Below, one piece after another: positions 29,874 to 54,665 of a stretch of 64,000 nt of DNA (position 1 is the stretch's first letter; each line of letters starts with the position of its first letter). The DNA lies in the NCBI GenBank assembly GCA_963770895.1, contig CAVYRF010000001.1:864001-928000 (forward strand), given 5' to 3'. A program made the translations under genes and the position numbers. This stretch comes from an uncultured Acidobacteriota bacterium. GTDB lineage: Bacteria; Acidobacteriota; Thermoanaerobaculia; Multivoradales; UBA5704. The notes beneath the pieces were generated by a model that made no database searches, was not told the DNA's origin, and saw nothing but the letters and a program-made list of their open reading frames with translations.

Positions 29874-32800
29874 ATGGCGGAAACGGTTGTCGAGGCGATT
29901 TACGAGCTGTCGCCCATCCAGCAGGGGATGCTGTTTCACGGCGTGTACGCCCCCGGCTCGGGTGTCTACGTGGTCCAGCTCAGCCTGCAGCTGGCCGGCG
30001 CGCTGGACGTCGCCGCCTTCGAGCGGTCCTGGCGGCGGGTGGTGGATCGGCATGCCATCTTGCGCAGCGCCTTTCACTGGCAGGACCTGGAGCGGCCGGT
30101 GCAGGTGGTCTATCGCGAAGTGGAGGTGGAGATCCGCCGGGAGTCGTGGCGCGGCCTCGCGGCGGGCGCGCAGCAGGAGCGGCTCGCCGACTATCTGAGC
30201 GCCGATCGCGGGAGCGGCTTCGACGTCGCCTCGCCGCCGCTGCTGCGTCTGGCCCTCTTCGAGCTCGACTCCGGGGTCCACCAGCTGGTCTGGAGCCTGC
30301 ACCACCTGCTCACCGACGGCTGGTCGCAGGGGCTGCTGCTGCGCGAGCTGTTCGAGTGCTATGCGGCGTTCGCCGCCGGACGCGAGCCGGTGCTCGGCCG
30401 CGCGCCGTCCTACCGCGAGTACATCGCCTGGCTGCAAAAGCAGGATCTGGCCCAGGCGGAGGCTTACTGGCGGCGCAGCCTTGCCGGGTTCCGCTCGCTC
30501 ACGCTCGTCGCGGGCGCGCCGCCCCCGCCGGCGGCAGCCGCCCCTGCCGGCGGCGGGAGGCCGCAGCGGCTCGGCCTCACGCTCGCCGCGGAGAGCACCC
30601 TGGGGCTGCGCGGCGCGGCGCGGCGCCACCGGCTGACGCTCAACACGATCGTCCAGGGTGCCTGGGCGCTGCTGCTCGGCCGCGCCTGCGCGGCGCACGA
30701 CGTGACGTTCGGCGTCACGGTGGCGGGCCGCCCGGAGGGCCTGGCGGGCGCGGAGTCGATCCTCGGGCCGTTCATCAACACCTTGCCGGCGCGGATCGGG
30801 ATCACGCCGGGGTCGCGGTTTGGCGACTGGCTGGCGGCGCTCCAGGAGCAGCAGGCCGAGCTGCGCGGCCACCAGCACTCGCCGCTGCACCGGGTGCAGG
30901 CATGGAGCGAGCTGCCGGCGGGGGTGCCGCTGTTCGACCACATCCTGGTTTTCGAGAGCTACCCGTTCGACGAGCTCCTGGCGGCGCCCCTGCCCGGCCT
31001 GACGATCTCGGCGCTGGCGGCCGACGAGCAGACCAACTACCCGGTGACGCTGGTGGTCCTCCCCGGCGCCAGCCTGTCCATCCAGATCCTCTTTCAGCCG
31101 GACCGGGTCGACGCCGCCGCGGTGCGGCGTTGGCTGGACGGCCTGGAGGGCCTGCTGGGCGCCCTGGCGACCGAACCCGACCTGTGGTCGTGGGAGCTGT
31201 CGCGACTGCTCGACCGGCAGGCCGGGGAGCGGCCCGCGAGCGGCCTGCCGCTGTCCGCACTGCCCGATCCGCCGGCCGAGCGGGCGGGCGCGGCGCGGGC
31301 TGACGCGCGCCGCGGACAGGTCGCCTTCACCTTGCCGGTCGCCGAGACCGCGGCGCTCCACGCCCTGGCGCAGCGGTCGGAGGCGACTCTGTTGATGGCG
31401 CTGGTCGCGGCTCTCGCCACCTTGCTGGTGCGCCATGCGGCCTGCGAGGGCCTGGCCCTCGGCGCGCGGGTGGAGGATGCGGACCCCGGCAAGACCGCGG
31501 GCCTCACCGGTCCCTGGGTCGACCTTCTGGGCCTGCGCGCCGACCTGGGCGGCGACCCGACCTTTGCCGACCTGCTGGCGCGCGCCCGCCGGCTGGTGAT
31601 CGACGCCCAGGCGCGCCGCGAGCTGCCTTACGCCGCGGCCGACGCCGACCTGGCCGCGATCGTGACAGACACGGCGGCGGGGCTCGCCGGGGTGGTCGAG
31701 CACCGGCTGGACCGCTTCGACGCGCCGTGGGCCGGCCGTTTCGCCCGCCACCTGCAAACGCTGCTCGCCGCCGTGCCGGCGGCGCCGCAAAGCCCGGTCT
31801 CGGCCATGCCGCTGCTGCCGGCGGCCGAGCGCTGGCAGCTGGTGGGGGAGTGGAACGACACGCGGGCGGACCGCTCCGCGGGGCTCCTGGCGCACGAGCG
31901 GGTGGCGCTGCACGCGGCGCGGGCGCCGCACTCGCTGGCGGTCGGCGGCGGCGGCCAGAGCTTGACCTACGGCGAGCTGGAGTCGCGGGCCGGCCGCCTG
32001 GCCGCGCAGCTGCAAGCGCTGGGGGTGGGTCCCGAAGTGCCCGTCGCGCTCTGCGCCGGCCGGACGCCGGCGCGGGTGGTCGGCCTGTACGCCGTGCTCA
32101 AGGCCGGCGGCGCCTTCGTGTCCCTGGACCCTGCCCACCCGCCGGAGCGGCTGGCCTTCGTGCTCGGCGACACCGCGGCGCCGGTGGTGCTCGCCGAGCG
32201 GCAGTTCCGCGGCCGCCTCTCGCTCGCGCCGGCGGCGGCCCGCGTCCTGTGCCTGGACGACGACCAGCCGGCCGGCGCGGGTGGTGGACCCATGCCTGCC
32301 GGTGATGCCGTGCGCCCGGTTACCGTTCACGCCGACAACCTGGCCTACGTGGTCTACACCTCGGGTTCGACCGGGCAGCCGAAGGGGATCGAGATTCCGC
32401 ATCGCGGCCTGCTCAACCTCGTCGTCTGGCACCAGGAGCGCTATGCGATCGGCGCCGCGGACCGGGCGGCGCTGCTGGCAAACCCGGCGTTCGACGCCTC
32501 GGTCTGGGAGCTGTGGCCCTACCTGGCGGCCGGCGCCAGCGTCCACATCCCGGACGAAGAGACGCGCCTGGCCCCGGACGCGCTGTTGCGCTGGTGGGCC
32601 CGGGAGCGCATCAGCCTGTCGTTTCTGGTCACGCCGCTGGCCGAAGCAGTCCTGGAGGAAGCGTCCCGGCATGAGCGGTTGCCGGCGCCGGCGCCGCGGG
32701 CGCTGCTCACCGGCGGCGACCGGCTGCACCGCCGCCCCGCTGCGGGCAGCGGCCTGCGCCTGGTGAACCACTACGGACCGTCGGAGTACTCGGTGGTGGC

Positions 32801-53800: not shown

Positions 53801-54665
53801 GCAGCCCTTCGCCGGCACCCAGGTCTGGCTGCTCGATCCGTGGCTGCAACCGGTCCCCATCGGGGTCGCCGGCGAGCTGCACATCGCCGGCCCCGCGCTC
53901 GCCCGCGGCTACCTGGGGCGCCCCGCGCTCACCGCCGCGAGCTTCATCCCGGCGCCGTTCGCGGCCCCGCCGGGATCGCGCCTCTACCGCACCGGCGACC
54001 TGGTGCGCCGCTGGGCCGACGGCGGCCTGGAGTTCGTCGGCAGGGTCGACGGCCAGCTCAAGATCCGCGGCTTCCGCATCGAGCCCGACGAGATCGCCGC
54101 CGTGCTGGCCAACCATCCCGCCGTCCGCGACGCCGCGGTGGCCGCCCATGCCGCCCCCTCCGGCGACCTGCGCCTGGTCGCCTACGCGGTCGCCGCCCGG
54201 CCGCCCGCGCCCACCGCGGCGGACCTCCGGCACTGGCTCGCGGACCAGCTCCCCGCCTACATGGTGCCTGCCGAATACGTCCTGCTCGACAGCCTGCCGC
54301 GCACCGCCTCGGGCAAGCTCGACCGCAAGGCCCTGCCCGCACCCGCCGCCGCCGAAGCCCGGCCGGCGGCGCCCGAGAACGACACCGAGCGCATCCTGGT
54401 CGACATCTGGAGCGCCCTGCTCGGCGGCGCCCGGATCGGCATCTACGACAATCTTTTCGCCCTGGGCGCCCACTCGCTCCTGGCGCCGCAGTTCGTCGCC
54501 AAGGTGCTGGACCTCTTCGCCGTCGAGCTGCCCCTCCACGCGCTCTTCGAAGCCCCCACCATCAAGCAGCTCGCCCTGGCCCTCAGCGACGCCCTGCTGG
54601 CCCAGATCGAGATGCTGAGCGAGGAAGAAGCGGTCGCGATGACCGCTCACCGCGACCTGCCATGA
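29874..54665 (+). CDS. Giant NRPS (8263 aa): C-C(partial)-A-T-C-A-T-C-A-T-C-A(remnant)-TE-A-T-C-A-T-C-A-T-C-A-T
   Basis: GGAGGT RBS before the ATG at 29874. Seven HHxxxDG motifs (about 30300, 34199, 37482, 40737, 45189, 48567, 51813), seven TSGxTGxPK motifs, seven G(G/A)HSL carrier sites and one GWSFG thioesterase (about 42297). No E, MT or reductase domain seen. Confidence 0.97.
42050..42860 (+). other. Internal thioesterase domain of the NRPS
   Basis: [31 protein letters not shown]: the Ser-Asp-His triad is present. Boundaries approximate. Confidence 0.92.

Follow-up and report, generated by a model that had tools for sequence, protein, structure and literature searches.

What can a nonribosomal peptide synthetase (NRPS) do with a thioesterase (TE) that lies in the middle of its own chain? 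The question is raised by a gene on contig CAVYRF010000001.1 of an uncultured Acidobacteriota soil bacterium, within a stretch of 64,000 nucleotides (positions 864,001 to 928,000) that we refer to as the window. The original prediction, made from the letters of this stretch, described a stand-alone NRPS that starts with a condensation (C) domain, has a single central TE and is flanked by no other NRPS gene, and it proposed a circularly permuted line in which the last carrier hands its chain to the first C domain. Our domain calls and the content of the window agree with the description, and the TE, in its non-canonical position, must act out of order; the proposed hand-over is harder to maintain. 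The protein is two subunits fused at a junction of TE and adenylation (A) domain, which in relatives is a stop/start overlap. Its fourth C domain (C4) is without its own A and thiolation (T) domains, whose place is taken by a docking-type helix; the second half lacks a C domain at its start, and its last module is of the basic-residue type and carries an acidic tail. From these features and their recurrence in relatives, we think it probable, if not strongly so, that the gene encodes a convergent two-chain NRPS with an empty slot, whose TE releases a branched peptide.

The fused gene and its central junction

Domains were called with Pfam and with profiles built from the gene and its genome, and nine-residue A codes were extracted by alignment at positions that we took to be those of the standard numbering. 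The first half reads C1, half C, A1-T1, C2-A2-T2, C3-A3-T3, C4, A remnant, basic helix and TE, and the second half, behind the TE, reads A4-T4, C5-A5-T5, C6-A6-T6, C7-A7-T7 and the acidic tail. The original prediction had the main order right and lacked the half C, the A remnant behind C4 and the docking-type helix that precedes the TE. Each of the seven full C domains carries HHxxxDG, all seven T domains have the serine of G[GA]HSL, and the TE contains GWSFGG followed by later Asp and His motifs. The series of C-A-T modules with intact motifs is that of a canonical linear (type A) synthetase; in such a line the TE directly follows the last T at the end, whereas here C4 precedes the TE and four modules come after it.

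The open reading frame (ORF; 29874-54665, forward strand) comprises 8,263 codons and a stop, is open throughout, and has a ribosome-binding-like GGGAGGT directly 5′ of the ATG at 29874. A stop near the TE, for which the original prediction had suggested looking, is absent: the join of TE and A4 (42750-42990) is stop-free in all three forward frames. Codons 4310-4369 at this join include no in-frame ATG, GTG or TTG, third-position GC is constant across it (0.87-1.0 in 30-codon bins), and the only repeat shared with the rest of the genome at a length of at least 100 nt and an identity of at least 85% is one of 119 nt at 39639-39757. Because the frame, start codon, third-position GC and repeat checks are all clean, a one-base slip, a masked stop or a repeat-driven misjoin at this point is unlikely. 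Contigs from four public runs are short near-identical pieces, none of which bridges the join. The source genome (8.16 Mb in 3 contigs, 95% complete) holds NRPS genes in dozens; the 64-kb window contains no second one, and the next begins 22 kb beyond the end of the gene and has its own TE.

The junction, as we use the term, is the stretch between C4 and the TE: about 60 residues behind the C-A linker of C4, followed by the basic helix. The 60 residues retain traces of two A-domain motifs, and in relatives A4 retains its own C-A linker or a half C. Since C4 keeps an A remnant and the A4 of relatives a linker or half C, the two are, judged by sequence, derived from two different modules, which weakens the earlier alternative of a TE inserted within one module. 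The pattern of the basic helix begins many other NRPS genes of the same genome, where the preceding gene often ends in a T domain and a T7-like acidic tail (for example C1:456157 with C1:462918 and C1:1147103 with C1:1153248; source-genome contigs are given with a colon). Normally, the domain behind a docking helix is the one to which the docked T passes its chain. At locus L157 the same helix stands before a TE, directly behind a gene ending in T and tail; there (L157:8810-10993), a glycosyltransferase-like domain is fused to the helix-TE, right behind an NRPS gene that ends in T and an acidic tail.

The acidic tail behind T7, likened to a docking helix in the original prediction, is PAX-like. 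The traits of PAX-like docking, an acidic tail behind T and a basic helix with a conserved Leu/Lys/Arg pattern, are both present, and PaxA T1 with its tail (PDB 7B2B) is the fourth PDB match to T7 plus tail. Against the PDB the internal helix itself gave no significant match (best E 0.19), it has no sequence match to PaxB, and a single-sequence fold of C4-junction-TE was unusable (mean pLDDT 37.5). C1, by its top PDB matches (McyB, PvdL, BacC, SrfAC and TycB), resembles C domains behind epimerization (E) domains, and it is an N-terminal COM-acceptor (helix-hand docking) C domain of the DCL class. A profile of COM-donor tails scores six genes of the genome strongly, and the T7 tail is not among them. 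Because C1 belongs to another docking class and T7 is missed by the COM-donor profile, the partner of the T7 tail is likely to be the internal helix and not C1. The hand-over from T7 to C1 would thus join two termini whose docking classes do not match, the matching helix being internal and before the TE; of the further suggestion that the two halves work with partners encoded elsewhere, the part concerning C1 probably stands and the part concerning the T7 tail probably does not. Docking of T7 on this helix, with a TE acting out of order, is common to the two readings that survive best below, and we regard it as very probable.

None of the six COM-donor-tailed genes is linked to the NRPS, and five of the six have a C-starting partner in their own cluster. 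A lone polyketide synthase (PKS) at C2:1288522-1294917, of the order KS-AT-KR-DH-ACP, has a COM-donor tail and no NRPS nearby; this orphan is a candidate donor for C1. COM pairs are described as promiscuous in PMC9113145, whose section on NRPS docking describes pairs at subunit ends only, and clusters of the family can be dispersed, over 800 kb in G011. The join of C1 to the half C has no ortholog in 91 other family genomes (E ≤ 1e-30), which leaves this gene alone among 92. Elsewhere in the source genome, another NRPS (C2:5389727-5415295) opens with a C of the DCL type, which is 68% identical to C1, plus a half C, and its cluster contains an E-COM gene; a short gene (C2:270138-272444) encodes a DCL-type C with a truncated A and adjoins no COM donor.

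The junction and its partner across relatives

A 500-residue query gave full-length matches in several of 41 relatives, and a profile of the C-remnant-helix-TE junction matched 39 of 92 family genomes (E ≤ 1e-22; some matches are weak or at contig edges). The architecture that the original prediction proposed to seek elsewhere is thus found, usually split over two adjacent genes. In a sample of 401 genomes of the class there was one full-length match outside the family (G335), and C-helix-TE is also present in an Anaerolineae record (L161). In the usual layout gene 1 ends in C-junction-TE and a C-less gene 2 starts at or near its stop, the two being translationally coupled in many relatives. 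One other genome has an in-frame fusion (G020:C25, C-junction-TE-A-T in one ORF, in an assembly otherwise rich in frameshifts); no further in-frame C-helix-TE-A fusion was found in 80 genome-collection loci or 80 metagenome loci. Often the first half of a relative starts with its own fatty-acyl loader or lies beside an E-COM gene and is thus independent of the second half, which keeps the same tail. The C-less A4-T4, which the original prediction had compared to a loading module, does look like a second start point.

Other domains can stand in the place of the TE. At G422:C4:2662588-2670609 the domain behind the C-remnant-helix is of the reductase type, to judge by its motif only, and another C stands behind the helix at G011:C1, G021:C4 and G431:C113. 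In three clusters (a second one in the source genome, G386 and G441:C104) the C-helix end is kept without a TE in the stretch examined. At G453:C1 (100 kb seen) and G441:C100 (the whole 40-kb contig), the sole further NRPS gene beside C-junction-TE is a single Lys-type module with tail, and no gene lacking a C comes into view.

The last module of the partner was compared in 23 clusters with 24 genes, loci that repeat an architecture being counted once and those at contig or locus ends (G007, G011:C3, G335, G433, G475 and most metagenome loci) being left out. Thirteen of the last codes are of the form D-x-E-D-x-[GA]-[ST], ten are Ser-type and one is DVWQIGLIE. For each of the 11 non-basic partners the genome has a free-standing Lys-type module, adjacent in ten cases, which is a C-A-T with a Lys-type code, a short acidic tail and a broken C motif. 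Such modules occur in 23 of 92 genomes, that is, in 23 of the 39 junction-positive genomes and in none of the other 53, by a hand comparison among kin that are not independent. As a baseline, 4 of the 241 complete codes of the source genome are Lys-type, two of them junction-linked. The Lys-type end persists in the clusters where a reductase or a C follows the junction and is therefore not accounted for by lactam release through a TE.

Domains of the C4 and C7 types also group apart. In a FastTree phylogeny that spans 481 C domains, a clade with support 1.0 unites 24 of the 28 that precede a junction, C4 among them, with one other domain, and 10 of 18 pre-Lys C domains of last modules, C7 among them, form a separate clade (support 1.0). 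Both clades are kept in a second tree with 60 more domains (0.97 and 1.0), with several junction-like cases outside them. C7-type domains deviate at otherwise conserved positions, several in the N-terminal helix; the deviations of C4-type domains are fewer and less striking. The N-terminal signature of C7 occurs in 11 of the 481 domains, all from last Lys-type modules of junction clusters. As a background set we took 120 proteins among 2,740 matches of a C7 search, ranked by their number of C domains: either of two C7 signature motifs appears in 3 of their 509 C domains, all before diamino-type codes, and no characterised cluster is named among the 120. The T signature [HR]SL[LM][AL]P is found in 20 of 540 T domains, 18 of which are Lys-type carriers, free-standing ones included, and in a tree of T domains the tail-bearing carriers of Ser-type clusters group with T7 (30 members, support only 0.78). 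The broken-motif C of the free-standing modules was considered as a sister of C7 and rejected, its mean identity being 41% to the C7 clade and 42% to ordinary C domains.

An acceptor carrier abuts the N-terminal helix of its C domain according to PMC10510592, and an Arg gate in this helix is described in PMC8097023; both were mapped onto C7 by motif only. Since its acceptor side is altered, C7 is suggested to be an unusual catalyst that uses a side-chain amine and leaves the alpha-amine for C4. The substrate of A7 may be Lys or Orn, which seem likelier than Arg. Position 322, which in PMC12283262 is Ala in the Arg consensus and Ser or Thr in the quoted Lys/Orn codes, is Ser in A7, as in the Lys/Orn codes DMEDVGSVDK and DGEDHGTVTK (7 of 10 positions match each); for exact A7-type codes, only an anabaenopeptin table turned up in the literature searched.

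Taken together, the parts would fit the following sequence of events. An outside COM-donor enzyme would prime C1, and modules 1-3 would assemble acyl-Leu-X-Y on T3. A4 would start a second chain, Ala-Val-Ser, which C7 would couple to a diamino acid, most likely Lys, on T7. By binding of its tail to the internal helix, T7 would then occupy the missing carrier position between C4 and TE, where C4 could transfer chain 1 to whichever amine of residue 7 is still free. The TE would then free the chain from T7, either hydrolytically or by cyclisation onto the free N-terminus of residue 4, and the product would be a branched or lariat peptide of the order 1-2-3-7, with residues 4-5-6 as arm or ring. 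More tentatively, and somewhat short of probable, the C domain and docking helix, followed by TE, reductase or a next C, may be a general device for capturing the peptide-loaded carrier of a second line. Within the same reading, and just as tentatively, the paired C subtype might link a chain to the Lys side-chain amine, so that two peptides are ligated at one lysine and a lariat can form; it may likewise be, with a similar reserve, that the device recurs in dozens of uncultured Thermoanaerobaculia clusters and that the present gene is its rare one-polypeptide form.

Several further arrangements were seen. The second junction cluster of the source genome (C1:2142226-2187602, split core C1:2147992-2170657) is without a TE: its gene 1 ends in C-junction, its gene 2 starts with a half C and ends in Ser-T-tail, and it has a free-standing broken-C Lys-type module and an E-COM gene on the other strand. 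At G011:C1:607874-640086 and G021:C4:1420284-1440000, repeated genes lie behind C-junction in which a basic helix (LAEERLL...) leads to a bare terminal C. At G015:C3:4767685-4805317, one C-helix-TE gene is followed by two C-less genes, each ending in a Lys-type module and acidic tail, which are possibly alternative second chains. The region just behind the junction is an insertion hotspot (G024:C34, G433:C130, G441:C104, G454:C2, G455:C30, G460:C6 and G386:C1) with duplicated junction DNA, transposase-like ORFs and a recurring reductase-like gene pair between C-helix and helix-TE. Free-standing helix-TE genes, which had been considered as independent proof that C and TE each need a helix, are weak evidence because they are located at this hotspot. 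At L200:6620-14220 an NRPS T-TE continues in frame into a further C-A fragment and another T-TE, in a frameshifted assembly. At L232, L248, L249, L259 and L277 NRPS genes end in T-C-TE; they lack both a carrier between C and TE and a match to the junction, and those of their C domains that were tested lie outside the junction clade.

Competing orders of assembly

The chief competitor of the convergent reading, which we consider rather unlikely, takes C4 and A4-T4 as one module split across the TE, so that the chain grows from residue 1 to 7 and docking on the helix serves T7 solely for access to the TE. A C without A-T and an A-T without C do add up to one module, and since a docking helix usually serves the domain behind it, its position before the TE suits this scheme equally well. 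Splits between C and A occur between genes of the source genome (C1:1013310 and C1:1029797), and a full C evidently works across a half C, both in domain C1 here and in the gene at C2:5389727. The scheme also gives the simplest account of the ten Ser-ending clusters and sits well with the translational coupling of the two genes. Yet it leaves unexplained the conserved Lys-type end, the signatures of C7 and T and the strict co-occurrence of the free-standing Lys module, and it has to pass over the relics that C4 and A4 each retain of their own lost partners, the two clusters without a C-less gene in view and the C-helix end kept in three clusters without a TE in the stretch examined. Survival of the Lys-type end without a TE behind the junction, together with the two lone-Lys-module clusters, favours convergence.

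Other observations weigh against convergence. In the ten Ser-type clusters the tail-bearing carrier that groups with T7 follows a Ser-type A, and the C motif of the free-standing Lys module is broken, so that one of the two bonds can be explained only with a further assumption, either ligation by the TE or an ester on Ser. The C domains of G453, G441:C100, G431, G335, G421 and L161 lie outside the well-supported clade, and the clades could stem from shared ancestry alone. The lone Lys module of G453 has a docking helix of its own and hence an unlinked upstream partner, which could be C-less. A7 matches the Arg consensus of PMC12283262, as quoted there, at 9 of 10 positions, differing only at 322, and A7-like codes in ApnA give Arg or Arg and Lys in PMC5311044; Arg at residue 7 would leave no usable amine. 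C domains have no general acceptor code according to PMC8097023, and in PMC10510592 the acceptor carrier holds a single amino acid, icosalide being an exception.

That the family layout is real and this copy stalled or half active, after loss of the gene that primed C1, seems improbable. Because no donor for C1 was found, a stalled orphan is possible: no COM-donor-tailed gene is linked, five of the six already have a C-starting partner within their cluster, and the C1/half-C join is without orthologs in the other 91 genomes. However, catalytic motifs and frame are all intact across 25 kb, an orphan COM-tailed PKS does exist, and the promiscuity of COM pairs (as reported in PMC9113145), the dispersal of family clusters and a genome that is 95% complete leave room for a donor.

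Circular permutation, with the order 4-5-6-7-1-2-3 and T7 docking on C1, would account for two open termini, a C1 without linked donor and a T7 without downstream gene, but we hold it to be very improbable: C1 is of the COM-acceptor DCL class in a gene without an E domain, the tail of T7 does not belong to the COM donors, no carrier would stand between C4 and TE, and the second half and its tail are the same in relatives that have a starter of their own. Still more remote is an in-line editing TE with release by another enzyme, for although a TE is missing near three sister clusters, this TE is the sole release domain of its cluster, ends the first gene in most relatives and is replaced by a reductase at G422:C4.

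The readings predict three different residue orders, namely 1-2-3-7 with 4-5-6 as arm or ring, 1-7, and 4-5-6-7-1-2-3. If convergence is true, the gene would represent a natural fragment ligation by NRPS, in which a portable C-helix-TE slot joins two multi-residue chains; it would provide a signature by which potentially isopeptide-forming C domains can be recognised in sequence; and it would change the predicted products of the whole cluster family, which a colinear reading would misorder. Even if the chain runs from 1 to 7, the layout, a mid-line TE to which a docking tail gives access, is conserved, and we did not find it in the literature searched.

Features, neighbouring genes and known systems

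The features of the gene are collected in the table. The last motif of A3 reads NDK instead of NGK (window 39981), and A2 (window 35187-36749) is of a divergent A subtype. Divergently from the NRPS, at 26813-29651 on the reverse strand, lie genes for a GntR regulator, an ABC ATPase, a membrane protein and a DinB-family protein, possibly a unit for export or regulation. Downstream, at 55470-58595 on the reverse strand, are a TAP-like alpha/beta hydrolase, a fusion of AHSA1 and GyrI-like domains and an ArsR regulator, with a possible role in processing or self-protection.

Table 1. Features of the central-TE synthetase gene, in window coordinates.
Feature	Position	Strand	Description
NRPS ORF	29874..54665	+	First half to C4-junction-TE fused with second half A4...T7-tail
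C1	29901..31178	+	DCL / COM-acceptor type, requires outside donor
Half C	31266..31841	+	HHxxxDG absent; aa 465-656
A1-T1	31902..33734	+	Code DAWFLGHVV, Leu-like
C2-A2-T2	33801..37007	+	Code DARHFALLT
C3-A3-T3	37089..40277	+	Code DGAFLGGVC, probably a hydrophobic residue
C4	40344..41678	+	Motif intact; in clade of pre-junction C domains
A remnant	41685..41867	+	Remnant of deleted A domain, no T behind; aa 3938-3998
Internal helix	41913..42002	+	Basic, docking-type, LSAAKRELL...RLRG; aa 4014-4043
TE	42084..42845	+	Ser in GWSFGG; sole TE of gene
A4-T4	42951..44684	+	No C of its own; code DLFNCALTY, presumably Ala-like
C5-A5-T5	44778..48101	+	Code DALWIGGTF, Val
C6-A6-T6	48171..51344	+	Code DIWHFSLVE, presumably Ser-like
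C7	51417..52757	+	Clade-specific changes in N-terminal helix and later motifs
A7	52812..54335	+	Code DAEDIGSVT, basic residue
T7	54390..54584	+	Uncommon HSLLAP signature
C-terminal tail	54585..54662	+	Acidic, docking-type, 26 residues

The layout is real, conserved and apparently undescribed, a nonlinear NRPS variant; no description of it was found in the full-text literature, most subscription journals being outside coverage. For its Lys-type end, a first likeness is myxochelin MxcG, an NRPS that reportedly acylates lysine on the side chain. The amonabactin synthetase shares this likeness, as described in PMC8949500. Amonabactin and myxochelin are small catechol siderophores, with no two multi-module chains and no C-helix-TE slot. 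In ObiF1 the TE likewise lies away from the protein C-terminus, but there, in the part of PMC10510592 that treats it, the TE stands directly behind its T and is followed only by an MbtH-like domain. The pair of PaxA T1-CDD and PaxB NDD, as described in PMC8251938, offers the same short acidic tail behind T and a helix of the pattern basic-basic-x-Leu-Leu; it bridges two proteins, from the C-terminus of the first to the N-terminus of the second, where a C follows, whereas here the helix is internal, behind C and before TE.

Two systems come closer. The icosalide synthetase IcoA of Burkholderia gladioli is one NRPS that starts two chains, which an LCL domain is proposed to join before TE release, according to the passages of PMC6553374 that describe it. 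IcoA follows the order of its gene, restarts at an embedded starter C and makes the join via a hydroxyacyl OH. The present gene has no embedded starter C: its second starting unit is an A-T that lacks a C and lies behind the TE, and T7 would have to dock backwards for the chains to be joined. In syringomycin synthesis, SyrE has an A-less last module completed by a separate C-less A-T unit (SyrB1-SyrC), and from the account in PMC8949500 SyrE keeps its T in a terminal C-T-TE and receives one amino acid by shuttle. Between C4 and TE, by contrast, the T is gone, and the carrier proposed to fill the slot would bear a peptide. By analogy, then, the gene would work most like the icosalide synthetase and the A-less module of syringomycin, while lacking a defining feature of each.

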